Shown: positions 542-17,222 of the stretch, one piece after another | How positions within the stretch are numbered: position 1 is the stretch's first letter | Layout: every line of letters starts with the position of its first letter | From: Myxococcota bacterium | GTDB taxonomy: Bacteria; Myxococcota; JACRCW01 | Reading direction: 5' to 3' | DNA length: 17,222 bases | NCBI GenBank assembly: GCA_040752415.1 | Contig: JBFMGU010000224.1 | Span: forward strand, 1 to 17,222 | Notes under the pieces: generated by a model | The model's input: only the letters and a program-made list of their open reading frames with translations | Databases searched by the model: none | What the model was told of the DNA's origin: nothing | Position numbers and translations under genes: made by a program

Positions 542-3500
542 TCAGCCTTCCACGCAGCCGCCGCCAGGCACGCAGACCGAGCCGCACCCGTCGGGGTCAC
601 CGCAAATGCGACAGAGACACTGCGGCGTGCACGGACCGCCACCACCGCAAATCTGGCCCGGTCCACACGCCTGACCATTGCAGCACGGACGGTTCGGGTC
701 ACAGGGCTCGCCGTCGGGCGCGCACTGACCGCCGCCGCCACAGTAGCCCTCGGGTGGGCACGCCTGGCCGTTGCAGCAGGGATGCGTCGGGTCGCATTGG
801 GCGCCGTCGGGAGCGCAGGCTCCACCGTCGGGGAAGCACTGCATGACAGCCGGGTCGCAGCGGTAGCCGGGGCAGCACTCGGCGTCGGCGGCACACGCGC
901 GTGCATCACACTGGTTCTGCGCACAGATGCCGTTGGCGCAGCTGCCACTGCAGCAGGGACGGTTCGGGTCGCACTGCGCTCCGTCGGAGATGCACTCGTT
1001 CTCGCAGATGCCCTGCGGACCGCAGTACCCGTTGCAGCACGGGATGCCGGCCTGGCACTGCGTGCCAATCGGTGTGCACTGGCTCTCGCAGATGCCGTTG
1101 GCGGAACAGGGCTGGTTGTTGCAGCACGGACGGTTGGGATCACACTGCGCTCCGTCGGGCGTGCAGGCGCCGCCGTCGGGGTAGCACTGCTGGGCCGCCT
1201 GATCACAACGGTACCCTGCACAGCACTCCGCGTCCGTGGCGCAGGGACGGTCGCACTGATTCGGCATGCAGGTGCCGTCGGTGCAGTTTCCGCTGCAGCA
1301 CTCGGTTGCCGCGTTGCACGCCTCACCCTCGACGCGACACTGCCCACCGCCGCCACAAGTCCCGTTGGCAGAGCACGACTGGCCGTTGCAGCAGGGACGG
1401 TTGGGATCACACTGCGCACCGTCGGGCGTGCAGCCTCCGCCGTCGGGGAAGCACTGCATGGCGGCCGGGTCGCAGCGATAACCCGCGCAGCAATCCGCGT
1501 CGGTGGCACAGGTCTGCGCGTCGCACTGGTTGGGTGAGCACACGCCGTTGGCGCAGTTCCCGCTGCAGCACTCCGCATTGACGGCGCACGCCATGCCCTC
1601 TGGGCCACACCCGCCGCCGCAAATGCCCTGTGCATCACACGTCAGACCGGCACAGCAGGTTCCATTGATGCACGGCTGACCCGCTTGCGCACAGGCTCCA
1701 CCGTCGGGGAAGCACTGCATGGCGGCCGGGTCGCAGCGATAACCCGCGCAGCAATCCACGTCGGTGGCACAGGTCTGCGCGTCGCACTGGTTGGGTGAGC
1801 ACACGCCGTTGGCGCAGTTCCCGCTGCAGCATTCTGCGTTGACGGCGCACGCCATGCCCTCTGGGCCACACCCGCCGCCGCAAATGCCCTGTGCATCACA
1901 CGTCAGGCCAGCACAGCAGGTTCCATTGATGCACGGCTGACCCGCTTGCGCACAGGCTCCACCGTCGGGGAAGCACTGCATGACAGCGGGGTCGCAGCGA
2001 TAACCGGCGCAACACTCGGCGTCGGTCACGCAGTTCCGACCATCACACTGGTTCTGCGCACAGGTGCCGTTGACGCAGCTGCCACTGCAGCAGGGAAGGT
2101 TCGGGTCGCACTGCGCTCCGTCGGGGATGCACTCGTTCTCACAGACGCCCTGCGGACCGCAGTACCCGTTGCAGCACGGGATGCCGGCCTGGCACTGCGT
2201 GCCAATCGGTGTGCACTGGCTCTCGCAGATGCCGTTGGCGGAACAGGGCTGGTTGTTGCAGCACGGACGGTTCGGATCACACTGCGCTCCGTCGGGCGTG
2301 CAGGCGCCGCCGTCGGGGTAGCACTGCTGGGCCGCCTGATCACAACGGTAGCCCGCGCAGCATTCCGCATCCGTGGCGCAGGGACGGTCGCACTGATTCG
2401 GCATGCAGACCCCGTCGGTGCAGTTTCCGCTGCAGCACTCGGTTGCCGCGTTGCACGCCTCACCCTCGACGCGACACTGCCCACCGCCGCCACAAGTCCC
2501 GTTGGCGGAGCACGGTTGGCCGTTGCAGCAGGGACGGTTGGGGTCACACTGCGCTCCGTCGGGCGTACAGCCTCCGCCGTCGGGGAAGCACTGCATCGCC
2601 GCTGGGTCACAGCGGTAGCCGGCGCAGCACTCGGCATCGGTCACGCAGTTCCGACCATCACATTGGTTCTGCGCACAGGTGCCGTTGGCGCAGCTGCCAC
2701 TGCAGCAGGGACGGTTCGGGTCGCACTGCACGCCGTCGGGGAGGCACTCATTCTCGCAGATACCCTGCGGACCGCAGTAACCGTTGCAGCACGGGATGCC
2801 GGCCTGGCACTGGGTGCCGATCGGGGTGCACTGGCCCTGGCAGATACCGTTGGAGCAGGGCAGCCCGTTGCAGCACGGACGGTTCGGATCACACGACGCG
2901 CCGTCAGGCCGGCAGGTTCCACCGTCGCCGCAGATGCCATTGACGCACGCTCCGCCACAGCACTCGTCGTTCACCGCGCACGGCTCGCCCGTCGGACGGC
3001 AGCCATTGGGCTCGCAGAATCCGTTGGCCGGACACGGCTGCCCGTTGCAGCATGGACGGTTCGGATCGCACTGCGCCCCGTCGGGGGTGCAGGCGCCGCC
3101 GTCCATGCACACGCCGTTGATGCACGCCAGGCCCGGTGCGCACGGAGCCTGCGCGGAGCACGGCTGACCCGGCCCTCCGCACATCACCACCACGCACTGC
3201 CGCGCCGCACCACACATCTCCCCGGCACGACACGTCCCACAATCCAGCACCTGCCCGCAGCCGTCGTCGACGACGCCGCAGGTGGCGCCCATCTGCTGAC
3301 AGGTGCGCGGCTGACACTGCGGCTGCTGACAGATGCCCTGCGTGCACTCCATGCCGGAGCAGCAGTCCGTTGCCGACGCACAGGTCTGCCCGGCGCTCCC
3401 ACACGCGTTGCACGAGGATCCCTGCAGCGGCACACACACCGTGCTCATCCGCGTGGCGCTGCACTCCAGGCGCCCGTCGATCTGGCACCCATCCCGCACC

Positions 3501-6424
3501 GTCACGCAGGGCTGTCCCACGCCCCATCCCTCGTCGACACTCGTGTTGCAGTTGTTGTCGCGCGCGTCGCACAGCTCGCTGTTGCCGGGGCGCACGGAGG
3601 GGTCGGTGTCATCGCAGTCACCGCCAGCGGAGGGCAGGCCGTCGCCGTCGTTGTCGCACTCCGCCGCGGAGGTGTCGGCGCCGGAGCAGTCCTGGTCCAC
3701 GCCGTCGCCGCACAGGTCGCGGGTGTTGGGGTGGATGGAGGGGTTGGTGTCGTCGCAGTCACCGCCCGCGCCCGGACCGGCGAAGTAGCCGTCGCGGTCG
3801 TTGTCGACGGGGTTGTCCGGGAGATCCACCACCATCAGGTGGACCTCCACGCCCGGTCCACGCTGATTGCTCGCGTCGGTGGCAAACACCACGAAGCGGT
3901 ACACGCCCTCCCCGCCCGGCGTCACCTGGAACGCGCGGCCGGGGAAATTCGCCGGCGGAGCAACCTCGACGAGGTCATGCTGCGGCGTGCCCGGAACCGG
4001 CTGCCACGTGAACGAGATCGCGCCCCCTTCGGGGTCCGTGGCGTAGGCCAGGTAGAGCTGGTGGGTGGCGCCGGTGCTGGGGTCCAGCACGCTGGACAGC
4101 GGGGAGACCAGCGGCTGTCCCGGCGGCAGGTCCGCGTTCTGCGCCACGACGAGAATCCGCGCCTCACCCGGCGAAGAATAGTCCGCACCGTCGTAGGCGA
4201 AGCAGGTCACCACGTACTCGCCGGGGGTGGACGCGGTGAACCAGGCGCGGCGTCCGTCGTGCTGGAGGGACGCGGGCTGCGTCACCGTCCAGGAGTAGGT
4301 GAGTCGAGCGGGATCGCCGTCGGGGTCGTGGGCAATGGCGTCCAGGAAGACCATCTCGCCCGCGCGCAACTCCACGGCGCTGGCGGCAACCTCGCAACGC
4401 GGCGGGATGTTGTCGGGCGGGGGCAGGAACGCCACCACCTCGAACGCGTACGTGATGGTGGCCGGCGCGTCCCCCACGGTGGCCAGGACGCGGTAGAGGC
4501 CCGGCTCCTGGGCGGTGACGTCGACGGAATCACCGGCCGGGACCAGCGTGACCGCGCCGTCGGCGCTCCACTGCACGGGCAGCGGGCCGTTCTCCACCAC
4601 CACCGACAACGACGCGGAGACCCCCACCGGCACCGCCACCACGTCGCCGGGAACGCCGAACACCACGGGGCGCGGCACGTCGAACTGCGGGTCAAACGAC
4701 GTGGCCAGTCCGTCGCAGTCGTCGTCGAGACCGTCGCGGTTGACCAGGTCCGTCACCACTACACGCTGGCCACCCAGCGGGGAGCCCGCCACCGAGGAGA
4801 CGCGGTCCGCCTCCTCCGCCGCCACCACCTGCACCACCACCTCCGCGGTGACCTCCAGCTCGGCGCCCGGCGCGGCGTCCACCCGACGAGCCACCACCAC
4901 CGCGCGCTCATTGCGCAGGTAGGAAGCCACCACGTCCAGCGCGCTGCCTTCCACGCTTTCCACGGCCAGCACGCGACCGCTCTCGTCGGCAACGGACAGG
5001 CGCAGGCGTCCACCGGCCTCCGGCACGGCGGAGGAAACCAACGCGTGCATCTCACGGATGCCGTCGGGCCCCGTCAGCGTCACCCGCGTCAACACCTGCA
5101 GCGCCCTTCCCTCGGTGAGGCTCGCCAGCACGTCGGCGGCATTGCTGGCGCCCGGCGGCGCACCCGCCACGCCGGAAGCGGGAATCTGCTGCAGCAAGGG
5201 AACGAGCAACGGCTGCACCAGCACATCCGAGGCGCAGGTGCTGTTGGCGCTGCCGTGGTCGACGTCAATGCTGACCAGCGTGGGGTCGGAGGAGGCCAGG
5301 TACGTGCTGAAGTGCTGCACCTCCGCCACGGCAATCCCCGCCGCGGTGTCGACGGAAACCAGCGGCACGGTCTCCCACCGCCCCGAGGCCTGGTCGAACG
5401 TCTGGACCTGGATGTTGCCCTGCGCCAGCACCGCAGCGGAGACGGGGATCTGGATGTGCACCGGCTGCGCGAACACCAGGCCGGAAGGGCCGAACTCCAC
5501 CGGGATCAGGTCGGTGGCCTGCAGGCCCGCCAGCAACGCTTCCGCGGGCGGCACCAGGTTCGCCACGGCGGAGATGGTGAGGTCCACGTCGCTCTCCAGC
5601 GCTCCTGGCGGAATCACCAGCGAGGTGCCGGCAATCTCGGAGAGCGGCGCGTCCACGCGAACCACGGCGCCGTCGGGGTCGGACGCGCTGACGGTCTGCT
5701 GCGTTTCCACCGTCACGCCCGCCACGCTCACCACGAAGGACTGGTCAATGACCTCGCCATCCAGCACCGCCTGCACGGTGAAGGAATGGGAACCCATCTG
5801 GTTGGCGCTGGGCGTCCAGGTGATGCGGCCGCTGGAATCCACCGCTGCACCCGTCGGAGCAATGGGCAGCGTCCAGGTGGCCACTCCCGAGCGCGAGAGC
5901 GTGGCCTGGTAGCTCCACGGCTGGTCCTGGAGGCCCTGCGGCACGGGGAGGGAGCGGAAGTACAAGCGCGCCGCCGGCTCACCCGAGCTGCTGCTTCCCG
6001 ACGAGGAAGTGGAAGAAGACGACGAGGTGGATGCCGCCCCGCTGGTGCTCCCGGACGTGGCCCCGCCCCCCGACGACGAGGACGCTCCGCTGCCGCTGCC
6101 CGCGCCCCCCGACGACGACGCGCCGCTACCCCCGCCCGAGGACGTAGCCCCATTGCCGCCCGACGAGCTCGACGCGTTGCCGCCCGAGGACGTGGAGCCG
6201 TTCGCCGCGGATGAGCTGGACACCACGCCGCTGCTCGACGACGATGACTGGCCCGAACCACTGCCGCCCGACGAGGAAGAACCCGTCTCCGCGGAGCTGG
6301 AGCCCCCGCCGGTCGACGAGCTGGTTGACGAGGAAGCGGGGTCGCCGCTGCTGGATGACCCGGTACCGCCGGAGCACGCAGCAAGGGACAACAACGTCAT
6401 GACGACGAGCGAGGAACGACGCAT
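542..6424 (-). CDS. Giant cysteine-rich surface lipoprotein (1960 aa): Ser/Gly linker, putative Ig (He_PIG/cadherin-like), ZU5-like, PKD/Ig-like domains, two MopE-type putative metal-binding motifs, long Cys-rich repeat array
   Basis: ATG with GAGGGGAG RBS 6 nt upstream; signal peptide MRRSSLVVMTLLSLAA-C (lipobox LAAC); Ser/Gly tract ~aa18-148; PTGAAVDSSGRITWTP (He_PIG-like); LVIPPGAL..FGPSGLVFAQPV..HFSTY (ZU5-like); DPDGD..LTYSW and DPEGGAISFTW (PKD-like); DCDDTNPSIHP..CGDGVDQDC and DCDDTDPSVRP..CDARDNNC (MopE-type); C-C-CC-C-C modules. Confidence 0.92.
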   Translation of the reverse strand: MRRSSLVVMTLLSLAACSGGTGSSSSGDPASSSTSSSTGGGSSSAETGSSSSGGSGSGQSSSSSSGVVSSSSAANGSTSSGGNASSSSGGNGATSSGGGSGASSSGGAGSGSGASSSSGGGATSGSTSGAASTSSSSSTSSSGSSSSGEPAARLYFRSLPVPQGLQDQPWSYQATLSRSGVATWTLPIAPTGAAVDSSGRITWTPSANQMGSHSFTVQAVLDGEVIDQSFVVSVAGVTVETQQTVSASDPDGAVVRVDAPLSEIAGTSLVIPPGALESDVDLTISAVANLVPPAEALLAGLQATDLIPVEFGPSGLVFAQPVHIQIPVSAAVLAQGNIQVQTFDQASGRWETVPLVSVDTAAGIAVAEVQHFSTYLASSDPTLVSIDVDHGSANSTCASDVLVQPLLVPLLQQIPASGVAGAPPGASNAADVLASLTEGRALQVLTRVTLTGPDGIREMHALVSSAVPEAGGRLRLSVADESGRVLAVESVEGSALDVVASYLRNERAVVVARRVDAAPGAELEVTAEVVVQVVAAEEADRVSSVAGSPLGGQRVVVTDLVNRDGLDDDCDGLATSFDPQFDVPRPVVFGVPGDVVAVPVGVSASLSVVVENGPLPVQWSADGAVTLVPAGDSVDVTAQEPGLYRVLATVGDAPATITYAFEVVAFLPPPDNIPPRCEVAASAVELRAGEMVFLDAIAHDPDGDPARLTYSWTVTQPASLQHDGRRAWFTASTPGEYVVTCFAYDGADYSSPGEARILVVAQNADLPPGQPLVSPLSSVLDPSTGATHQLYLAYATDPEGGAISFTWQPVPGTPQHDLVEVAPPANFPGRAFQVTPGGEGVYRFVVFATDASNQRGPGVEVHLMVVDLPDNPVDNDRDGYFAGPGAGGDCDDTNPSIHPNTRDLCGDGVDQDCSGADTSAAECDNDGDGLPSAGGDCDDTDPSVRPGNSELCDARDNNCNTSVDEGWGVGQPCVTVRDGCQIDGRLECSATRMSTVCVPLQGSSCNACGSAGQTCASATDCCSGMECTQGICQQPQCQPRTCQQMGATCGVVDDGCGQVLDCGTCRAGEMCGAARQCVVVMCGGPGQPCSAQAPCAPGLACINGVCMDGGACTPDGAQCDPNRPCCNGQPCPANGFCEPNGCRPTGEPCAVNDECCGGACVNGICGDGGTCRPDGASCDPNRPCCNGLPCSNGICQGQCTPIGTQCQAGIPCCNGYCGPQGICENECLPDGVQCDPNRPCCSGSCANGTCAQNQCDGRNCVTDAECCAGYRCDPAAMQCFPDGGGCTPDGAQCDPNRPCCNGQPCSANGTCGGGGQCRVEGEACNAATECCSGNCTDGVCMPNQCDRPCATDAECCAGYRCDQAAQQCYPDGGACTPDGAQCDPNRPCCNNQPCSANGICESQCTPIGTQCQAGIPCCNGYCGPQGVCENECIPDGAQCDPNLPCCSGSCVNGTCAQNQCDGRNCVTDAECCAGYRCDPAVMQCFPDGGACAQAGQPCINGTCCAGLTCDAQGICGGGCGPEGMACAVNAECCSGNCANGVCSPNQCDAQTCATDVDCCAGYRCDPAAMQCFPDGGACAQAGQPCINGTCCAGLTCDAQGICGGGCGPEGMACAVNAECCSGNCANGVCSPNQCDAQTCATDADCCAGYRCDPAAMQCFPDGGGCTPDGAQCDPNRPCCNGQSCSANGTCGGGGQCRVEGEACNAATECCSGNCTDGTCMPNQCDRPCATDAECCAGYRCDQAAQQCYPDGGACTPDGAQCDPNRPCCNNQPCSANGICESQCTPIGTQCQAGIPCCNGYCGPQGICENECISDGAQCDPNRPCCSGSCANGICAQNQCDARACAADAECCPGYRCDPAVMQCFPDGGACAPDGAQCDPTHPCCNGQACPPEGYCGGGGQCAPDGEPCDPNRPCCNGQACGPGQICGGGGPCTPQCLCRICGDPDGCGSVCVPGGGCVEG
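647..3091 (-). repeat. Intragenic array of 28 consecutive six-cysteine (C-C-CC-C-C) modules with block duplications
   Basis: Counted from the translation, e.g. CTPDGAQCDPNRPCCNGQPCSANGTC and CRVEGEACNAATECCSGNCTDGVC. DNA blocks 836-1450 and 1973-2587 (615 bp) are near-identical and flank two tandem 261-bp units (1451-1711, 1712-1972). Confidence 0.92.
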
Positions 6425-8745: not shown

Positions 8746-11511
8746 ATGCTCAACGTTCGCACTCTGCACACCTTGGCAGTGACGGCACTCGCACTCTCGT
8801 TGTGGGCATGCCCGACGCAACAGACGGATGACCCCGAGGTGGAAGGCGGCGCCTCGGAAGGCTCCCCGTGCGTGGCGGACACCGACTGCGACGGCATGCT
8901 GTGCATTGGCGGGACGTGCCAGCGACAGGGAGCGAGCACGTCGTCGGGAGGCTCGTCGGGGAACGCGTCCGGGTCGGGCGGGTCCAACACCTCCAGCACC
9001 AGCGGAGGCGGCGGGGACGCTGGCCCCACCGACGCGTACGTGCCCGCGGGATTCATCGAGCTGGACCCCGCCGAGGGACCGCTGGAATTCGGCGCCACAC
9101 GCGTGGGCGCTTCCGTCACGCTGAACGTCCTCGTCACCAACACCGGCAATGCCCCCGCCAGCCTCATCAGCCTGGCCTTCCGCAACAACCCCAGCGGCGA
9201 GTTCACGCTCAGCGTGGTGGGCGGGCAGCCCGCGGTGCTCAACCCCAATGAGCAGATCACCGTCCGCATCACCCACGCCGCCACCGACGCCGCCGCCGAC
9301 CACGCGTTCCTCAGTGTGGTGACCAATGCATCCAATCCGCTCGTCGAGCTGGAGCTGGTGGCGGAGTTCAAGGGTGACCCGGCCCTCTCCATCACGCAGA
9401 CTCCCGACGACACCACCGAGGTGACGACGTGGGCGCTGGATCCCACGCCGGTGGGCACCCCGGTGACGGGTCACCTCTACGTCAAGAACGTGGGCCAGGC
9501 GGACAGCGCGCTCACCATCTCCAGCGTCACGCTGGACCCTCCGGCCTCCGCGCTGTTCAGCGTCGCGGCGGGCCCGTTGCCGCGTGCCATCAGCTCGTGG
9601 TCGGGGTTGTGCGTGGACCTGGGCGGCTGCGACCCCACCGCCACCGAGTGCACCAACGGGCTGTGCCTGGGCAGCGGCTCGGGGGGAACGCTGTATCCGC
9701 GGGACGTCGTCGACGTGGCGCTGACCTTCAACGCGGGCGCCGGTGGCGAGGCCACCACGGAGGTGGTCATCGTCGCCGACGTTGCGGGCACGCCCACCAC
9801 GCGTCGCATCCCGGTGGCGGCGTTGGCGCAGGATTCCCGCCTCAACGTCAGCCCCAATCCCATTGCGTTTGGCAACGTCTTCGTCGGGCGCGACAAGACC
9901 CTGCAGGTCACGTTGGAAAACCCCGCCGACGCCACCAGCGTCCTCAACATCACCGACATTGGCATCCGCTTCACACCGAGCCCGTACGAGGTGCAGCTGG
10001 GTGGCGTGAGCTTCCCGTACCCGCTGACGCCGGGGAGCAGCGTGGTGGTGGCCGTGAAGTTCTCGCCGCAGAACCCGGGCAACTTCGGAAACAGCCTGGC
10101 CATCTCGCGTGAGGGCGGCCTGCCCATCTACGTGCCCATCACCGGCGTGGGCGCCAATGAGCCGGATGCCGACGTGCCCGCCAGCCTGGACTTCGGCGGC
10201 GTGGTGCCCGGCACCTCCAAGACGCTGCCGCTCACCATCGGCAACGTGGGGCTGGGGCCGCTCATCACGTCGCAGGCGGAGGTGACGCCCTCCGGGACGC
10301 CGTTCACGTTCACCCCCGCCACCATCCCCGACGTGGATGCCAACTCCAGCACCCTTGTGCAGGTGACCTACGCGCCTCCGCTCGAGGGCGTCACCGACGT
10401 GGCCACGCTGCTTCTGCAGACCAACGACCCCAATCAGCCGGTCATCCAGGTGCAGCTCTCCGGGCAGGGCGTCATCCCCGCCGCCGAGGTGACGCCGTCG
10501 GGGTTGGACTTTGGCAGCGTGCTGGTGGGCACGGCCAATCCCCCCACGCAGAACATCACCGTGCGCAACACCGGCATGGGGTACCTCAACGTCAACAGCC
10601 CGCTGCGCGTGGTGAACGCGGGTGGCGCGAACATCCCGGAATACACGGTGACGGCGTCACGCACGCTGCCTGCCGACGTGGCCAGCGGGGACGCCATGAC
10701 GCTCACGGTGCGCTTCGCGCCCAGCGCCGCCACGTCCTACAGCGGCAACCTCACCATCACCACCAACGACCCGAACCGCCCGGAGATCACCGTGCCCGTC
10801 ACCGGCAGCGGGAACAACTGCACGCCGCTGCCCAACACCAGTGTCACCGTCGTGAATGGCACGCAGTGCGCGTATCAGTGCGTCCCGGACGCGGTGCAGT
10901 GCGCGGACCAGAGCTGCGTGATTTGCCCGCAGCGCCACGGTGCCACGCCCTCGTGCACGTCGGGGAATGCGTGCCAGTACACCTGCCCCGCCAACAGCGG
11001 TGAGCCGATTGATCCGCCCGGCACGTGCAACAGCGGCACGGCGTACAACCTGGGCAACATCCAGGACGGCAGCACGCAGACCACCAGCAACTTCCGCGTC
11101 TACCCCGGCGGCGACAACGACTGGTTCAAGTTCGTGGCCGCGGACCGTCTGGGTGGCTTCTACGAGGGTGTCCCGTTCCGCGCCTTGCAGGTCTTTGTGC
11201 GGCTCTCCGGCGTGCCGCAGGGCGAGCAGCTGGCGGTCGAGCTGGTGCAGAACACCTGCGGCGGCGGTGGCACGCCGGTGGTGGTGGGCGCGGGACAGAC
11301 GGGAGAGGTGGAGAGTCCCCAATGGTGTGACACGTACAGCGTCAATGACAACGGCACACCGGACAACCCCGACGACGACTACACCGAGCCCATCGACGAC
11401 AGCCGCACGTTCTACGTGCACGTGTACCCGATTGGGGACAGCTACGCGTGCAACAGCTACACGCTGACGGTGGAAGTGGAAGAGCCGTTCTTCAGCGCGT
11501 TCTGCTTCTGA
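8746..11511 (+). CDS. Lipoprotein with five ASH/choice-of-anchor-D (Hydin-like Ig) domains, Cys-rich modules and a C-terminal PPC-like domain (921 aa)
   Basis: Signal MLNVRTLHTLAVTALALSLWA-C; repeated LxFGxVxVG...V/IxNxG motif (LEFGATRVG..VTNTG, IAFGNVFVG, LDFGGVVPG..IGNVG, LDFGSVLVG..VRNTG), two of them ending in TNDPNxP; C-terminal GDNDWFKF...FYVHVY...YTLTV resembles the bacterial pre-peptidase C-terminal domain. Confidence 0.88.
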   Translation: MLNVRTLHTLAVTALALSLWACPTQQTDDPEVEGGASEGSPCVADTDCDGMLCIGGTCQRQGASTSSGGSSGNASGSGGSNTSSTSGGGGDAGPTDAYVPAGFIELDPAEGPLEFGATRVGASVTLNVLVTNTGNAPASLISLAFRNNPSGEFTLSVVGGQPAVLNPNEQITVRITHAATDAAADHAFLSVVTNASNPLVELELVAEFKGDPALSITQTPDDTTEVTTWALDPTPVGTPVTGHLYVKNVGQADSALTISSVTLDPPASALFSVAAGPLPRAISSWSGLCVDLGGCDPTATECTNGLCLGSGSGGTLYPRDVVDVALTFNAGAGGEATTEVVIVADVAGTPTTRRIPVAALAQDSRLNVSPNPIAFGNVFVGRDKTLQVTLENPADATSVLNITDIGIRFTPSPYEVQLGGVSFPYPLTPGSSVVVAVKFSPQNPGNFGNSLAISREGGLPIYVPITGVGANEPDADVPASLDFGGVVPGTSKTLPLTIGNVGLGPLITSQAEVTPSGTPFTFTPATIPDVDANSSTLVQVTYAPPLEGVTDVATLLLQTNDPNQPVIQVQLSGQGVIPAAEVTPSGLDFGSVLVGTANPPTQNITVRNTGMGYLNVNSPLRVVNAGGANIPEYTVTASRTLPADVASGDAMTLTVRFAPSAATSYSGNLTITTNDPNRPEITVPVTGSGNNCTPLPNTSVTVVNGTQCAYQCVPDAVQCADQSCVICPQRHGATPSCTSGNACQYTCPANSGEPIDPPGTCNSGTAYNLGNIQDGSTQTTSNFRVYPGGDNDWFKFVAADRLGGFYEGVPFRALQVFVRLSGVPQGEQLAVELVQNTCGGGGTPVVVGAGQTGEVESPQWCDTYSVNDNGTPDNPDDDYTEPIDDSRTFYVHVYPIGDSYACNSYTLTVEVEEPFFSAFCF

Positions 11512-11869: not shown

Positions 11870-12841
11870 TCAGTACTCGTACAGGTCCTTCGCCACCTTC
11901 ACCACGTCGTCAACCTGGGGGAGGAAGAACTTCTCCAGGCTGGGCGCGTAGGGCACCGGCGTGTCCGGCGCGGTGATGCGACGCAGCGGCGCATCCAGGT
12001 GCTCAAAGCATTCCTCGTTGATGATGGCCATGATCTCGCCCGCGGGACCGCCGGTGCGCGTGGCCTCGTGCAGGATGAGCACCTTGTTGGTCTTCTTCAC
12101 CGTCGCCACGATGGCCTCGCGGTCCATGGGCAGCAGCGTGCGCAGGTCCACCACCTCCACGTTGATACCGTCGGCGGCCAGCTTCTCCGCCGCGTCCAAC
12201 GCCACGTACACCATGGCGCCGTAGGTGATGACGCTGAGGTCGGTGCCCTCTCGCGCCACGCGCGCCTTGCCAATGGGCGTCAGCTCCTCCGTCACCTCGC
12301 CCTTGATGCGACGGTAGAGGAACTTGTGCTCCAGGTAGATGACCGGGTCGTCGTCCTGGATGGAGGCGCGGATGAGACCGTACGCGTCCTGCGCGGTGGC
12401 GGGCGCCACGATCTTCAGCCCCGGGATGTTCATGTAACAGGCCTCCGGGTTCTGCGAATGGTACGGCCCACCGCTCACGCCGCCACCACACGGCCCGCGA
12501 ATGACGATGGGAATGCCCACGCCCCAACGGTACCGGCTCTTGGCCGCGTAGTTGACGATGATGTCGTGCGCGCAGCCCATGAAGTCGATGAACTGCATCT
12601 CCGCCACCGGCCGCATGCCCGTGATCGCGGCGCCAATGGCCGCGCCCACAATCGCGCTCTCGCTGATGGGCGTGTCGACGATGCGGTCCGGACCGAACTC
12701 ATCCAGGAACCCCTTGGTCACGCGGAACGCGCCACCGTAGGTGCCAATGTCCTCACCCAGCATGAACACGCGCGGGTCCCGCACCATCTCCTCGTGCAGT
12801 CCCTTGGTGAGCGCCTCGATATAGGTCATCTGCGCCATCAT
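11870..12841 (-). CDS. 2-oxoacid (branched-chain/pyruvate) dehydrogenase E1 beta subunit
   Basis: GEDIG..GGAFRVTKG, DTPISESAIVG, VAEMQFIDF, GGPYHSQ, EHKFLY, EVVDLRTLLP, LDAP..DTPVPY motifs. TGATGATG junction with the upstream gene; GGAG spacing favours the second ATG (12838) as the start. Confidence 0.95.
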   Translation of the reverse strand: MMAQMTYIEALTKGLHEEMVRDPRVFMLGEDIGTYGGAFRVTKGFLDEFGPDRIVDTPISESAIVGAAIGAAITGMRPVAEMQFIDFMGCAHDIIVNYAAKSRYRWGVGIPIVIRGPCGGGVSGGPYHSQNPEACYMNIPGLKIVAPATAQDAYGLIRASIQDDDPVIYLEHKFLYRRIKGEVTEELTPIGKARVAREGTDLSVITYGAMVYVALDAAEKLAADGINVEVVDLRTLLPMDREAIVATVKKTNKVLILHEATRTGGPAGEIMAIINEECFEHLDAPLRRITAPDTPVPYAPSLEKFFLPQVDDVVKVAKDLYEY

Positions 12842-13938
12842 CAGCTCCGAATCCGGTAGTGCACCCCGGTCCTGGCATCACCCGTCAATTCCATCGCCGC
12901 GTACACGTCGGTCAGTCCGTCGACACCGGTGGCCGGCGCGCGCTTGACCGCTTCCTGCACGGCGTCACGCCACTCCGTCTCCACGCGCTCCTCCACCGCC
13001 TTCAAGCCGTTCTCGTCGAGGATGCCCAGCTCCGCCAGCCGGTGCTCCAGTCGGCACAGCACGTCCTCGTCGGACCGGCGACACCGACGCACGCGCTCCG
13101 CGTAGTCGTCGACCTCGTCGGTGGTGTGGCCGCCGGCGCGGATGGTCTTGCATTCCACCAGCGTTCCCCCGCCACCCGAGCGCGCGCGCTCAAAGGCCCG
13201 CTGGCACGCCAGGTACACCGCTTCCACGTCGCAGCCGTCCACGCTCTCGAACGGGACCCCATACGCCTCCGCGCGCGTGGCCAGGTCTGGGAGGAGGCAG
13301 TCCAGCTCCGTGGCGGTGCCGCCGGCAAAGCCGTTGTTGTTGCACAGCATGACGTAGGGCAGTCCCTGCGCCGCCACCAGGTTGATGGCCTCGTGCCAGG
13401 TGCCGGTGTTCATGACGCCGTCACCAAAGAACCCCAGCGCCACCTGCTTCTGCTTGCGCACGCGGAAGGACAGCGCAATGCCCGCGCCCACCGCGAAGTT
13501 GTCGGCGGTGGGACCGAGCGGCGGCGTGGTGTGGAGCGCCAGGCTGCCCAGGTGCGTATGCCCCGTGCGTCCGCGGCTGGGTGACTGCGCCGCACCCTGG
13601 AACTGCGCCACCACGTCGACGAGCGGCAGGCCCCGCATCAGGTGCGCGCCCAGCTCACGCTGCGTGGGACAGATCCAGTCATCCTTGGCGGTGTGGATCA
13701 CCGAACCCACCACCGCCCCTTCCTGTCCCAGCGCGGCGTGCAGCGGCCCCACCAGCTTCCCCTGCGCAATCCCTTCCGCCAGGTGCTGCTCGACGAGGCG
13801 CGTGCGCACCAGCGCGGCGTGCATGGCCCGCAGCTGCTCCACCGGCACCTGGCTGGGCGTCACGTCGGGAGCACGACCATTCCTGGCCTTGCGCGCACGC
13901 CCCGCGGACTCCGTGATGCTTTCCTTGCTCTTGGCCAT
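12841..13938 (-). CDS. TPP-dependent 2-oxoacid dehydrogenase E1 alpha subunit (second, more diverged copy)
   Basis: LGQEG, PTQRELG, TPP-binding GDG...HEAINL...NNNGFA, VDGCDVEAV, LVECKTIRAGGH; stop codon abuts the beta gene. Confidence 0.9.
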   Translation of the reverse strand: MAKSKESITESAGRARKARNGRAPDVTPSQVPVEQLRAMHAALVRTRLVEQHLAEGIAQGKLVGPLHAALGQEGAVVGSVIHTAKDDWICPTQRELGAHLMRGLPLVDVVAQFQGAAQSPSRGRTGHTHLGSLALHTTPPLGPTADNFAVGAGIALSFRVRKQKQVALGFFGDGVMNTGTWHEAINLVAAQGLPYVMLCNNNGFAGGTATELDCLLPDLATRAEAYGVPFESVDGCDVEAVYLACQRAFERARSGGGGTLVECKTIRAGGHTTDEVDDYAERVRRCRRSDEDVLCRLEHRLAELGILDENGLKAVEERVETEWRDAVQEAVKRAPATGVDGLTDVYAAMELTGDARTGVHYRIRS

Positions 13939-13947
13939 GGGCTCGCC

Positions 13948-14967
13948 TCACATCGGGGGGACGGCGGGACGCTTCTCGCCGGCGTAGACACCGCCCATGG
14001 CGCTCTCGCCACGCGGCTGGGGAACGGTGAGCGCGCGGTCCACGCACTCGGTGAGCAGGTCCTCGATCTTCGCGCGCATCGCCTCGCGCTCGGCGCGGCT
14101 GGGGGCGCCGGGGGTGGCGTCGCAGGTCTGCTCGAAGCGCAGCAAGGGGTCCCGCTGCTTCCACTCCTCGAAGAGCGCGGGCGGGACGTAGCCGGCGTCA
14201 TCATGTTCGGCGTGACCGCGCATGCGGAAGGTCACGGCTTCCAGCACCACCGGGCCCTTCCCCTCCCGGCACAACGCCGCCGCACGACGGGTGGCGCGCA
14301 CCGCCTCCAGCACGTCGTTCCCGTCGAAGCGGATGCCGGTGACGCCGTACGCCTTGGCCTTGAGCACGAACTCCTTGATGGGCGTCTCGCGCTGGTTGGG
14401 CGTGCTGTACGCGTAGCCGTTGTTCTCGATGACGCAGATGAACGGCAGGCGCTTCACGGCCGCCAGGTTCATGGCCTCGTGGAAGTAGCCGTTGGTCTGG
14501 CCGCCGTCGCCAATGTACGTGAGCGCCACCGCGTCCTGGCCGCGCATCTTGATGCTCATGGCCACGCCGGACATCACCGTCATCAGCGCGCCGAGCATGG
14601 AGGTGCAGCACACCAGGCCCTTGCTGAGGTCACCAAAGTGCGTGTTGACGTCGCGGCCCATGGTGGGTCCGGTGGCCTTGGCACAGTACTGCGCCATGAT
14701 GGCCTCCGGGCTGATGCCGCGGACCATGAACACGCCCAGGTTGCGGATCATGGGTCCCACGTAGTCGCTGGGACGGAGCGCATAGGCCGTGCCCACGCTG
14801 CACGCCTCCTGCCCCAGCGAGCGGTACAACCCGCCGACGATCTGGCCCTGCCGGTACAGGCGCGTGAGCCGCTCCTCGAGGAGACGGTTGAGGTTCATGA
14901 AGTAGTAGAGGTCCGCCAGCTCCTCCGGCGTGAACTCCACGGTGGTCTCAGGGGCGGGTTTCACCAC
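13948..14967 (-). CDS. TPP-dependent 2-oxoacid dehydrogenase E1 alpha subunit (canonical copy)
   Basis: GTG start with AAGGAG RBS 7 nt upstream; LYRQG, LGQEA, GDGG...HEAMNLA...ENNGYAYSTP, DGNDVL, FRMRGHAEHDD..Y...W..RDPL. Confidence 0.95.
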   Translation of the reverse strand: MVKPAPETTVEFTPEELADLYYFMNLNRLLEERLTRLYRQGQIVGGLYRSLGQEACSVGTAYALRPSDYVGPMIRNLGVFMVRGISPEAIMAQYCAKATGPTMGRDVNTHFGDLSKGLVCCTSMLGALMTVMSGVAMSIKMRGQDAVALTYIGDGGQTNGYFHEAMNLAAVKRLPFICVIENNGYAYSTPNQRETPIKEFVLKAKAYGVTGIRFDGNDVLEAVRATRRAAALCREGKGPVVLEAVTFRMRGHAEHDDAGYVPPALFEEWKQRDPLLRFEQTCDATPGAPSRAEREAMRAKIEDLLTECVDRALTVPQPRGESAMGGVYAGEKRPAVPPM

Positions 14968-15019
14968 GGGGCAGCTCCTTCCCGAGGGGCGAGGGTCCTA
15001 GGGCACCCCGGGTCCCGCC

Positions 15020-15034
15020 GCAAGGGCCTGGCCA
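15020..15034 (-). promoter_or_regulatory. Candidate sigma-54 -24/-12 promoter for the E1 operon
   Basis: The minus strand reads TGGCCAGGCCCTTGC (TGGC-N7-TTGC), ~50 nt upstream of the GTG start. Confidence 0.35.
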
Positions 15035-15114
15035 CGGGCATGCCCGCGCAGATGCTGCGGAATGACACCATGGGCGCCAATGGCCGCGCCGGAGCGGATC
15101 GTTAGGATTCCGAC

Positions 15115-15120
15115 GAGGAG
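15115..15120 (+). promoter_or_regulatory. Ribosome-binding site for the Pup-like ORF
   Basis: GAGGAG 8 nt upstream of the ATG at 15129. Confidence 0.7.
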
Positions 15121-15128
15121 ATAGGGCC

Positions 15129-15287
15129 ATGAACGTCCATCACGCTCCCAATGCGCCGCAGTCCCGCACCAGCACGTCCCAGGAAGAGCAGGACCTGGCC
15201 GCGCTCCTCAAGGAGATGGCGGACGACGCCCGTCACGCCGCGGCGGAGTACCTGGAGGACAGTCTGGTCCGTGAAGGCGGAGAATAA
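15129..15287 (+). CDS. pup: Pup/UBact-like prokaryotic ubiquitin-like protein (52 aa, C-terminal GGE); absent from the supplied ORF track
   Basis: Hand translation: MNVHHAPNAPQSRTSTSQEEQDLAALLKEMADDARHAAAEYLEDSLVREGGE*. Strong RBS, polar disorder-prone N-terminus, acidic helix-prone C-terminal half, terminal GGE, and 8 nt upstream of a PafA-family gene. Confidence 0.85.
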   Translation: MNVHHAPNAPQSRTSTSQEEQDLAALLKEMADDARHAAAEYLEDSLVREGGE

Positions 15288-15295
15288 GCCGTCCC

Positions 15296-16993
15296 ATGTT
15301 GCAGCGACTGCTGGGCCAGGAAACCGAATACGCCATCCGCTTCACCCCGCGGGATCGGTCACGTCGGCCCAGCAATGAGGTCGTGTACAACGCGCTGTCG
15401 GCTGCCGTGTCGTCGTTGGTGTCCACGCGGCCGGGTGAACGGCAGGCCGTGCGCAAGCAGTTCTTCACCGAGAACGGCGGCGCCTTCTGTTACGAGTTCT
15501 TCCCCTACGCCACCGACGCGGGCCTCATGGAAGGCGCCACGCCGGAATGTCGCGGGCCCGGCCAGCTCCTCCTCTACCAACGCGCGCAGGAAGCGCTCCT
15601 GCTGCAGGCCATCCCCATTGCCGAGCAGACGCTGGCCATGCAGGGCTACGGCGGCTCGCTCGGGCTCATCAAGAACTGTCGCGACGCCCAGGGCCACGTC
15701 TACGGCGCGCAGGAGAACTACGAGGTGGAGATTGCCCGCGGCGTGGGGCTGTGGCTCTACCGCGCGGGGCTGGTGCTGCTCATGCCGTTGCTGGCGCTCA
15801 CCGTGATGCAGATGTGGATGGGCGTGGCGCTGTTCTTGGTGGCGGCGGTGGCGGTGCTGTTGTCCTCGGTGGTGCTGAGCACGGTCATTCCGCCGCTGCG
15901 TCGGGTGCCGCTCATCCGCCAGCTCCGCGATGGCGACGACGATCTGGCCTCCGATCCCACCCTGGGGCGCCTGAGCTGCCTGGTGGAGCGGGTGCTGGGC
16001 TGGCCGGTGATGGCCCCGTTTGCGCTCTTGTTGCGCGCGTTGGCGTTCCGCCGGGTCCGTCGGGACGTGCTGGCGTTCCTGGTGAGCCGGCCCATCATCT
16101 CCGGAACCGGCACGGTGATGCCCGACGGGAGCTTCTGGCTCAGTGAGAAGGGCGTGGCCACGCTCCGCGTGATGCGCAGCAGCGTGAGCCCGGCGGACCG
16201 TCCCATCCTGGACACCGGGAACCTGTTCAAGGACCTGGCGGCGCCGGTGCTGGCGCGGGTGCCACCGCTGTTCAGCCTGTTTTCCCGTCGTCAGCGGCTG
16301 CAGCTGGGGCTCAGCGACTCCAACCGCGCGCAGGTGGCGGAATACCTCAAGGTGGGGACCACGTCGCTGGTGCTGGACATGATGCAGGCGGGCGCGCTGG
16401 CCGACGCACCGCGCTTCCGCGACCCGGTGGCCGCGCTCAAGACCTTCATCTCCGACGCCACGCTGCGCGCCACCGTGCGCACCACGGGCAACCGCGAGGT
16501 CACCGCCCTGCAGGTGCAGCGCTACTACCTGGAGCGGGCCCGCGCCTTCGTGCGCAGCTCCACCACCACGTCGCTGGAAGCGCACGAGATTGTCCGGCAC
16601 TGGGGTCAGGCGCTGGATGCGCTGGAGCAGGATCCCGGCACGCTCGTCGGGAAGATTGACTGGGTGACCAAGCGGCACCTGCTGCAGACGCTGGGGCGGG
16701 ACTCCCCGCATGAGTCGCTCAAGAAGATGGACCTGCGCTACCACGAGCTGGGCGTGGGCTACCTGGACCGGCTGGAGCGCGCGGGCCAGGCGCCGCGTCT
16801 CGTCGACGAGGAGCAGGTGCAGGAAGCCGTGCGCACCCCGCCTTCCGGGACGCCAGCGCGCCTGCGCAGTCGACTCATCCGCATGCTGCCCAACCCGGAT
16901 TCCATGGTGACCGTGTCGTGGAGCAGCGTGCGGGTGGGCGGTCCGGTGGGGGGCCAGGTCATCCGGCTGGACGATCACCGGCCGTGCCCGTGA
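15296..16993 (+). CDS. pafA: Pup ligase/deamidase (PafA/Dop) family protein with an internal hydrophobic, probably transmembrane, insertion (565 aa)
   Basis: Collinear PafA motifs: RLLGQETEY (GhExE), FTENGG, EGATPEC, LIKNCRD..G..YGAQENY, FLVSR..ISGTG, RPILDT, RLQ....DSN......LKVGTTSLVL, ALQVQR.Y, IDWVTKR.L, DLRYHE, PP..T.ARLR, VSW. Uncharged stretch at aa157-200. Confidence 0.88.
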   Translation: MLQRLLGQETEYAIRFTPRDRSRRPSNEVVYNALSAAVSSLVSTRPGERQAVRKQFFTENGGAFCYEFFPYATDAGLMEGATPECRGPGQLLLYQRAQEALLLQAIPIAEQTLAMQGYGGSLGLIKNCRDAQGHVYGAQENYEVEIARGVGLWLYRAGLVLLMPLLALTVMQMWMGVALFLVAAVAVLLSSVVLSTVIPPLRRVPLIRQLRDGDDDLASDPTLGRLSCLVERVLGWPVMAPFALLLRALAFRRVRRDVLAFLVSRPIISGTGTVMPDGSFWLSEKGVATLRVMRSSVSPADRPILDTGNLFKDLAAPVLARVPPLFSLFSRRQRLQLGLSDSNRAQVAEYLKVGTTSLVLDMMQAGALADAPRFRDPVAALKTFISDATLRATVRTTGNREVTALQVQRYYLERARAFVRSSTTTSLEAHEIVRHWGQALDALEQDPGTLVGKIDWVTKRHLLQTLGRDSPHESLKKMDLRYHELGVGYLDRLERAGQAPRLVDEEQVQEAVRTPPSGTPARLRSRLIRMLPNPDSMVTVSWSSVRVGGPVGGQVIRLDDHRPCP

Positions 16994-17096
16994 ATGGGTT
17001 GGCGGGAAATCCCGAGACAAGGAAGTCAGAAGTCAAGCGATGTCGGGGAATCCCCACAGGGAGTCACGAAGCGGGTGAGCGGAAGCAGCGGCGCCC

Positions 17097-17150
17097 TGGA
17101 GTGCGGTGCGAAGCGGATCAAGCGGTCGACGACGTGAAGCACCGCCCTGG
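17097..17150. repeat. Variant REP-like element with expanded loop
   Basis: TGGAGTGCGGTGC...GCACCGCCCTGG shares the GGAGTGCGGT head and ACCGC..TGG tail with the other copies; stem 17103-17109/17139-17145 with a 29-nt loop; downstream of pafA. Confidence 0.55.
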
Positions 17151-17222
17151 ATCGGGCCGTCCAGACGGCGCGGACGTCGTTCAGTCCCCCGGGTGCCTCG
17201 TGCTCTCGACGCTCCCCATGGC

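Follow-up and report, generated by a model that had tools for sequence, protein, structure and literature searches.

The window, that is, the whole 17,222-nucleotide (nt) stretch of DNA analyzed here, is the entire contig C140 of an 11-Mb Myxococcota genome. Close to its right end lies an open reading frame (ORF) of 52 codons (15129-15287, + strand), whose product, MNVHHAPNAPQSRTSTSQEEQDLAALLKEMADDARHAAAEYLEDSLVREGGE, ends in Gly-Gly-Glu (GGE) and which directly precedes a gene for an enzyme of the PafA/Dop (Pup ligase) family. The peptide ORF is a real and widely conserved gene, far above chance. The two genes are tightly linked, the terminal Glu of the peptide is invariant, the enzyme is encoded in a single copy, no proteasome was found, and the two products are predicted to bind each other. 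We consider it probable that the peptide is a Pup-style modifier and that the enzyme, a putative membrane ligase, joins the terminal Glu to an amine, likely that of a protein lysine, without the participation of a proteasome.

The reading frame of the peptide is closed upstream by a TGA codon at 15063-15065, and no ATG, GTG or TTG codon occurs between this stop and position 15129. When candidate starts were scored, the ATG at 15129 was the sole start in the frame. The 3' end of the gene (15273-15287) reads GAA GGC GGA GAA TAA. A preliminary description of the contig had read the same gene, with a GAGGAG ribosome-binding site (RBS), the ATG at 15129, a GGE-TAA end and no in-frame ATG after the TGA at 15063, and all of these elements are confirmed from the sequence. 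The peptide consists of ~20 variable N-terminal residues and a C-terminal block, LL.EM.DDA....YLEDSLVREGGE, which is directly followed by the stop codon. A gap of 8 nt separates this stop codon from the ATG of the ligase gene at 15296. It had also been suggested that the GGAG within the last codons of the peptide gene serves as the RBS of the ligase gene and couples the translation of both. Such a role is possible in the window but is not a conserved property of the gene pair. In 70 loci, the peptide stop and the ligase start are separated by 2-256 nt (median 21.5; up to 12 nt in 27 loci and more than 30 nt in 23 loci), and therefore GGAG-mediated coupling cannot be general.

The conservation of the gene pair was addressed by a scan of single genomes, one for each species, for which 25 aligned ligases served as the query. 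The scan returned 230 confirmed places, of which the best 80, corresponding to 78 loci, were kept. The N-terminus of the ligase is present in 75 of these loci, the other three (L046, L060 and L072) holding C-terminal fragments. The 75 loci comprise 72 of the window's ligase type and three of the canonical UBact/proteasome type (L079, L080 and L081). A + strand ORF that ends in G[GSA][EQ]-stop lies no more than 200 nt upstream of the ligase in 68 of the 75 loci, and the peptide ORF is located farther upstream in L069 (256 nt) and L033 (~410 nt). A peptide gene precedes the orthologous ligase gene in 71 of the 72 loci of this ligase type, and also in L002, a relative in the window's phylum. The peptide terminates in GGE-stop beside the ligase in 70 of the 72 loci and in DGE in one (L049:3690-3875, ending ...IPADGE, the sole non-GGE terminus among 71 peptides); the remaining locus, L074, has no peptide. 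Judged by their record titles, the carriers belong to at least six phyla: Myxococcota (Plesiocystis pacifica, Chondromyces apiculatus, Paraliomyxa miuraensis, Enhygromyxa, Haliangium and others), Acidobacteriota (Marinacidobacterales, Vicinamibacteria and Thermoanaerobaculia), Planctomycetota (for example L051, L059 and L062-L066), Verrucomicrobiota, Spirochaetota (Leptospirales) and Bdellovibrionota; a Pseudobacteriovorax is among the carriers.

The peptides were aligned using hand-picked start codons, usually an ATG with a Shine-Dalgarno motif, which gave 71 members of 43-80 amino acids (aa). Apart from the L049 terminus, GGE is invariant in this alignment, and D33, Y41 and V47 are conserved in at least 90% of the members. 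The terminal residue is Glu in all 71 peptides and is never Gln. The last 32 residues follow the consensus L..vl.eI..DA......YL.ET.VPEGGE, and the N-terminal part varies freely in both sequence and length. The variation of the underlying DNA follows the pattern of a coding region, in that the third codon position is the most variable (column entropies of 1.14 bits at position 1, 1.10 bits at position 2 and 1.62 bits at position 3). Furthermore, the ratio of nonsynonymous to synonymous substitution rates (dN/dS) over the last 33 codons is below 1 (0.06-0.87) in 15 of 18 close pairs with 70-99.5% DNA identity. The preliminary description had named conservation of the frame and of the GGE-stop in relatives as a test of its reading, and both are conserved in nearly all loci of this ligase type.

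Profile searches locate the peptide gene with high specificity. A leave-one-out profile, for which 70 orthologues were used and the window sequence was omitted, was run against 184,813 stop-to-stop six-frame segments of at least 25 aa from the 11-Mb genome. The peptide ORF was the only significant match (E 6.9e-10, 42.7 bits), the runner-up having an E-value of 0.52. In each of two other carrier genomes, the profile search likewise gave one significant peptide match, which adjoins the ligase gene. Among 1.84 billion representative proteins, an exhaustive search with the profile retrieved 836 matches at E <= 0.001, of which 56 reach E <= 1e-10. The 150 highest-ranking matches are 46-86 aa long, with the match extending to their C-terminus, and among ten matches that were looked up, the named ones are called 'hypothetical protein'. 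In contrast to these profile searches, a word-index search with the 52-aa peptide returned its self-match only, and an ESM Atlas search gave no usable match. In a search of sequencing runs, no RNA run was listed with the sequence, and a single DNA run contained a 0.12 share of its words. Among the Pfam and NCBIfam models, none covers the modifier, and current annotation either misses it or lists it as a 'hypothetical protein'. The gene has been missed because it is short and because no family model exists.

The enzyme encoded downstream of the peptide is a full-length member of the Pup ligase family. It matches the Pfam Pup_ligase model PF03136 with an E-value of 3.5e-83 over model positions 1-440 of 441, and its sequence matches in the PDB are Dop (4.8e-34) and PafA (2e-28). 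An AlphaFold2 model computed from 28 sequences has a mean predicted local distance difference test score (pLDDT) of 89.8 and a predicted template modeling score (pTM) of 0.90. The top Foldseek matches of this model are Dop (7oy3, 5.5e-25) and the PafA-Pup structure (4bjr, 4.1e-24), with a TM-score of up to 0.83 on the target; YbdK/GCS2 and gamma-glutamylcysteine synthetases rank much lower. When aligned to the canonical L079 enzymes PafA and Dop, the ligase clade keeps the G.E.EY, TPEC and KN..D..G..YG..EN motifs, and its invariant residues include E9, E11, N127, D130 and E140. Public protein data contain more than 1,200 relatives of ~560 aa, which are called, where named, 'PafA2 family protein' or 'Pup amidohydrolase'. 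Among the own genome and 60 relatives, the ligase was found in two of 61 genomes, that is, in one other genome only.

Two insertions distinguish the ligase clade from the canonical Nitrospirales PafA and Dop. One comprises ~24 residues. The other comprises ~100 residues, is located directly after the ENYE motif and is missing from the canonical enzymes. Its first half forms a continuous hydrophobic stretch of ~50 residues (~150-202), whose length suffices for a two-helix membrane hairpin, and this stretch is followed by a charged loop and then by an amphipathic helix. In this region, the ligase model has helices at ligase residues 149-197 and 221-249. All 28 aligned ligases have a hydrophobic stretch of ~45-65 residues. 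The ligase of L074 (Novipirellula herctigrandis CA13; ~3893-5737 of that locus) is among the most divergent ones (34% identity) and displays a single hydropathy-detectable span.

The carrier genomes that were searched encode one enzyme of this family. Exactly one PF03136 gene was found in the window genome and in each of five other carriers from four phyla (5/5), in agreement with the single enzyme gene of the preliminary description. The sole PF00227 match in the window genome is HslV, with 264.9 bits on the HslV equivalog, and the best match to the Mpa model (TIGR03689, pup_AAA) is a generic AAA ATPase, whose 163.7 bits fall short of the cut-off of 504.75. Mpa and the 20S proteasome were thus not found in an assembly of 520 contigs and 96.8% completeness, a scope that falls short of proven absence. 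A bacterial 20S beta subunit above the cut-off was likewise found in none of the five other carrier genomes. Beyond the ligase and its antisense shadow, no ORF cluster occurs in more than 12 loci, and 12 downstream genes that were scanned are mutually unrelated (chorismate synthase, an S13 peptidase, kinases, UvrD and others). The module consists of two genes, one for the peptide and one for the ligase.

How would the peptide and the ligase meet? The complex was predicted from a ligase alignment of 28 sequences and a peptide alignment of 71 sequences in three runs, with three controls. The interaction prediction score from aligned errors (ipSAE) was 0.87, 0.87 and 0.84 in the three runs and 0.00 in all controls (two unrelated peptides and one unrelated large protein). 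The mark used for this score is passed by 116 of 157 solved complexes and by 2 of 215 mismatched pairs, a calibration that is rough here since custom alignments were used. At least 94% of the contacts are common to the runs, and the pLDDT of the partner is 72-74. On the peptide side, the modeled interface comprises residues 22-23, 26-31, 33-35 and 38-52, which constitute the conserved block. On the ligase side, it comprises the active-site sheet (residues 11, 13-17, 67-77, 125-139 and 299, including the invariant E11, E67 and D130) and helices 462-498 of the C-terminal domain. The model, which had been proposed as a check of the peptide assignment, thus places the conserved half of the peptide and its tail on the ligase, as was expected there, and supports peptide-ligase binding, short of showing it.

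We propose a mechanism, in which we infer the chemistry, the nature of the acceptor, the membrane localization and the consequence of tagging. The peptide would be largely disordered, with a C-terminal half that is prone to form helices. The single PafA/Dop-family enzyme would take up the conserved ~30 C-terminal residues of the peptide into a groove, and the tail would thereby bring the free C-terminal Glu into the ATP-dependent carboxylate-amine ligase site. There, the Glu would be activated, presumably at its gamma-carboxylate via an acyl-phosphate, and joined to an amine, most likely the lysine side chain of a target protein. Because the ligase has a hydrophobic membrane insert, tagging may take place on the cytoplasmic side of the inner membrane. 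The tag would not feed a proteasome, given that neither the 20S proteasome nor Mpa was found in the genome. No deamidase would be required because the terminal residue is always Glu. The preliminary description had already argued that a terminal Glu makes deamidation dispensable, which fits a single enzyme gene. The alignment bears this out, and its core reading, a hidden Pup-like modifier with a ligatable terminal Glu beside a single ligase-family enzyme, is supported by the conservation of the gene, the invariant Glu and the predicted complex.

Several results weigh against this mechanism. First, homology of the peptides to known modifiers is undetectable. None of the 71 peptides matches the Pfam Pup model PF05639 or the Pfam UBact model PF20513 at E <= 10, in searches where the HMMER filters discard most matches above E ~0.1, and none matches the NCBIfam UBact model NF033388 or any NCBIfam Pup model. 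A profile of the peptide family retrieved no Pup chain from the PDB sequences at E <= 10, and hhalign gave a probability of 1.25% for the comparison of the peptide family with 25 UBact sequences. Second, the locus in Novipirellula herctigrandis CA13 (L074) has a ligase gene and no recognizable peptide gene, either in the locus or in the genome (best E 0.55). Third, dN/dS exceeds 1 in three of the 18 close pairs (1.34, 1.98 and 3.32), on a measure that is short and noisy at 33 codons. Fourth, the enzyme stays far below the cut-offs of both the PafA equivalog (TIGR03686, 198.6 bits against 551.3) and the Dop equivalog (TIGR03688, 171.3 bits against 492.3), and whether it catalyzes ligation, hydrolysis or both cannot be read from its sequence. 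At position 67 (15494-15496), the 28 ligases of the clade have an invariant Glu where the Nitrospirales PafA and Dop have an Asp in the NG..Y.D motif. We take this residue of the canonical enzymes to be their catalytic Asp, and the conservative exchange of Asp for Glu could bear on ligase versus hydrolase chemistry. Fifth, all-against-all ORF clustering over 79 loci revealed no third conserved gene beside the pair that might point to the targets. Finally, the high score of the predicted complex may mirror its likeness to PafA-Pup and Dop-Pup because those complexes are solved.

With respect to family membership, the comparison with the Pup and UBact profiles that the preliminary description had called for thus turned out negative. 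The Pup model also gave no match at E <= 10 in the six-frame translation of the genome, where a Corynebacterium glutamicum control scored above the cut-off, and the UBact model NF033388 recognized its positive controls in L080 (Poribacteria, 83.8 bits) and L081 (Nitrospira, 74 bits), both of which end in ...RYRQRTGE. Judged by sequence, with Pup compared via its Pfam model and PDB chains, the peptides are a third family, with a size, a gene position and a C-terminus like those of Pup and UBact. The preliminary description had also likened the C-terminal half of the peptide by eye to the tail of mycobacterial Pup, a resemblance for which the Pfam Pup model and the PDB chains gave no match. A functional definition of Pup asks for a protein of 50-90 aa with a C-terminal Gly-Gly-Glu/Gln that adjoins a PafA/Dop-family gene. 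The window peptide has 52 aa, ends in GGE and lies 8 nt from such a gene, an adjacency that recurs in 71 of 72 loci. The definition also includes covalent attachment through the terminal Glu to lysines of targets, and in this respect the complex prediction supports binding, short of showing it. Since homology to Pup and UBact is undetectable, we use the term 'Pup-like' on account of where the gene lies, how large its product is, how it ends and how it is predicted to bind, and do not mean membership in either family.

An alternative that we regard as unlikely is that the peptide is a never-conjugated partner of the enzyme, either as a regulatory or inhibitory subunit or as a substrate that a Dop-like activity hydrolyzes or processes. 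This view draws on the slightly better matches of the enzyme to Dop than to PafA, both among PDB sequences (4.8e-34 versus 2e-28) and in Foldseek (5.5e-25 versus 4.1e-24). It also agrees with the work of Hecht et al. (Mol Biol Evol 38:761, 2020; PMC7947786), in whose sections on the single-copy planctomycete homologues these enzymes form an outgroup with ties to PafA and Dop alike. However, 70 of the 71 peptides have the free C-terminal Gly-Gly-Glu that ligation would require of its substrate, and a Gln in need of deamidation never occurs. Moreover, a hydrolase would have nothing to reverse in a genome with one enzyme of the family, and the NCBIfam equivalogs score PafA above Dop (198.6 versus 171.3 bits).

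Another alternative, which we judge to be quite unlikely, accepts that the peptide binds the enzyme but replaces the protein lysine with a membrane amine, such as the head group of phosphatidylethanolamine (PE), or with a small amine. The peptide would then be anchored in a manner similar to Atg8-PE or converted in a manner similar to the reaction of glutathione synthetase. The carboxylate-amine ligase fold is compatible with this possibility in that other members use small amines, and Foldseek finds YbdK/GCS2 and gamma-glutamylcysteine synthetases. Likewise, the conserved membrane insert would position the active site at the bilayer, and no conserved gene for a target or reader lies nearby. 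However, protein lysines are the targets of the nearest characterized relatives, PafA and Dop, the predicted binding of the peptide spans a long groove and its tail like that of a protein modifier, and no result points to a lipid. The notion that the ORF is untranslated and owes its conservation to a regulatory leader or RNA element upstream of the ligase is scarcely credible, given the protein-level conservation over six phyla with DNA divergence mostly at third codon positions, a stop directly after GGE despite a ligase spacer of 2-256 nt, the usual Shine-Dalgarno motifs at the start codons and the hundreds of these ORFs called by public gene callers.

Our preference for a Pup-style modifier that is ligated to proteins leaves room for a more far-reaching proposal, which we put forward as rather unlikely in its full extent. 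The peptides would constitute a third modifier family in at least six Gram-negative phyla, and the membrane ligase would tag substrates that are not destined for a proteasome. These could be inner-membrane proteins with a degradation-independent or FtsH-type fate, or a lipid amine as in Atg8-PE.

The features of the peptide-ligase region are listed in the table below.

Table 1. Positions of the peptide gene, the ligase gene and associated elements in the window
Feature	Position	Strand	Basis or remark
GAGGAG Shine-Dalgarno-like motif	15115-15120	+	Read from the sequence; 8 nt 5' of the peptide ATG
Gene for the putative 52-aa Pup-like modifier	15129-15287	+	ORF reading, alignment, coding signature and profile searches
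GGAG within the Gly-Glu codons	15279-15282	+	13 nt 5' of the ligase ATG; possible, rather distant RBS
Intergenic region between the divergent E1-dehydrogenase gene and the peptide gene	14968-15128	.	ORF map
Pup-ligase-family (PafA/Dop-like) enzyme, 565 aa, single copy	15296-16993	+	PF03136 match, fold and genome count
Ligase insert immediately following the conserved ENYE strand, residues ~149-251	15740-16048	+	Alignment, hydropathy and model

In the window, the pair is transcribed divergently from an E1 dehydrogenase gene cluster, and the promoter of the two-gene unit presumably lies in the intergenic region. Promoter and terminator consensus scans found nothing; the lack of a sigma-70 consensus says little for this organism. 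The divergent cluster (11870-14967, - strand) contains two consecutive E1_dh genes (12841-13938 and 13948-14967), which encode 2-oxoacid dehydrogenase E1 alpha-like proteins and thus represent a duplicated alpha subunit, followed by one gene for a transketolase-like E1 beta subunit (11870-12841). On the other side of the pair, the contig ends 229 nt past the ligase stop codon, and an open-ended frame of 101 aa in 16918-17222 has no family match. Two large genes lie farther to the left. An ORF of 1960 aa (542-6424, - strand) contains 11 short Cys-rich repeats with a weak match to Pfam Conotoxin_I2 (24.5 bits, below the cut-off) as well as Big_9 and ZU5-like stretches, and resembles a giant repeat-rich surface or secreted protein. 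A gene at 8746-11511 (+ strand) encodes a 921-aa protein that is composed of several Ig-like domains of the ASH, HYDIN and Cep192 types. These domain families are chiefly known from the cilia and centrosomes of eukaryotes, and bacterial surface proteins have them as well.

The arrangement described here has a precedent in the literature. The in silico study of Iyer, Burroughs and Aravind (Biol Direct 3:45, 2008; PMC2588565) reports that Pup orthologues with a C-terminal G[EQ] adjoin a Pup ligase in Plesiocystis pacifica and Rhodopirellula baltica, that these pairs are unlinked to proteasome genes and that the ligases contain an insertion of four transmembrane segments after core strand 4. The study further suggests that the pairs may pupylate membrane-associated proteins, and it ties the Plesiocystis and Rhodopirellula peptides to Pup by PSI-BLAST and HMMer. 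The window pair is orthologous to the pair of Plesiocystis pacifica SIR-1 (L058), whose ligase is 48% identical to the window ligase over residues 1-562 in a tblastn comparison and whose peptide, listed as hypothetical protein WP_006972941.1, ends in ...YARETVVPEGGE and is part of the 71-peptide alignment. As in the 2008 study, a protein of 50-90 aa with a terminal G[EQ] lies beside a single Pup-ligase homologue without linkage to the proteasome, and a hydrophobic insertion directly follows core strand 4 of the ligase. Three points differ from the account given there. In place of four transmembrane segments, we observe a hydrophobic stretch of ~50 residues and one amphipathic helix; the linked 'membrane protein gene' is not conserved, as the downstream genes vary by locus; and the peptides, called Pup orthologues there, are missed by the current curated Pup models. 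The arrangement was thus already predicted in silico in 2008, from two genomes, and the present case is its rediscovery. In the literature searched, which left most subscription journals outside its coverage, no experimental work on this type of membrane ligase and peptide was found, and systems of this kind are experimentally uncharacterized.

The present analysis adds the size of the family (836 representative peptides), its spread over at least six phyla and its invariant VPEGGE tail. It also documents that no curated model exists and that the members are named 'hypothetical', that no third gene is conserved beside the pair, and that the predicted complex passes its mark. To our knowledge, almost all work on pupylation has dealt with Actinobacteria, in which this modification feeds the proteasome. 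A module of a Pup-style modifier and a dedicated membrane-bound ligase would be common in six phyla, in genomes in which no proteasome was found, and because of the latter the purpose of the module must differ from that of actinobacterial pupylation. A family model made from the present alignment would annotate hundreds of genes. Furthermore, the 2008 prediction is directly testable because carriers have been cultured, namely Plesiocystis pacifica, Chondromyces apiculatus, Paraliomyxa miuraensis and Roseiconus nitratireducens. A specialist aware of the 2008 paper would not be surprised by the pair itself, and the pair represents a well-defined, testable and neglected system.

Among the other known systems, the planctomycete homologues of Hecht et al. 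represent the enzyme kind of the window, encoded in a single copy and sharing ~30% identity with PafA as well as with Dop. Unlike the present analysis, the sections of that paper dealing with them (PMC7947786) make no mention of a cognate peptide, a membrane insert or a spread to Myxococcota, Acidobacteriota, Spirochaetota and Verrucomicrobiota. UBact, from Nitrospirota and other Gram-negative phyla, is also a small modifier outside Actinobacteria that ends in Gly-Glu/Gln and is encoded beside PafA/Dop homologues. However, the UBact loci L079-L081 carry Mpa, Dop, PrcB, PrcA and PafA at or near equivalog scores, and the window family scores nothing on NF033388 (0/71). In the Nitrospirales locus L079 (L079:1-5374), the gene order is Mpa, Dop (542.7 bits), PrcB, PrcA and PafA (555.8 bits). 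In this locus, unlike in L080 and L081, a simple scan picked up no + strand ORF ending in G/S/A-E/Q, and UBact may use another ending or strand there. The actinobacterial Pup system differs from the window pair in that it has two enzymes, PafA and Dop, in place of one. In addition, the window peptide has no PF05639 match and its family always ends in Glu, the ligase carries a membrane insert, and Mpa and the 20S proteasome were not found. Nevertheless, the two systems share a modifier of similar size, its C-terminal Gly-Gly-Glu/Gln, and the Pfam family and fold of the enzyme, and the window peptide is predicted to bind as Pup does, through its C-terminal half and with its tail in the active-site cradle.

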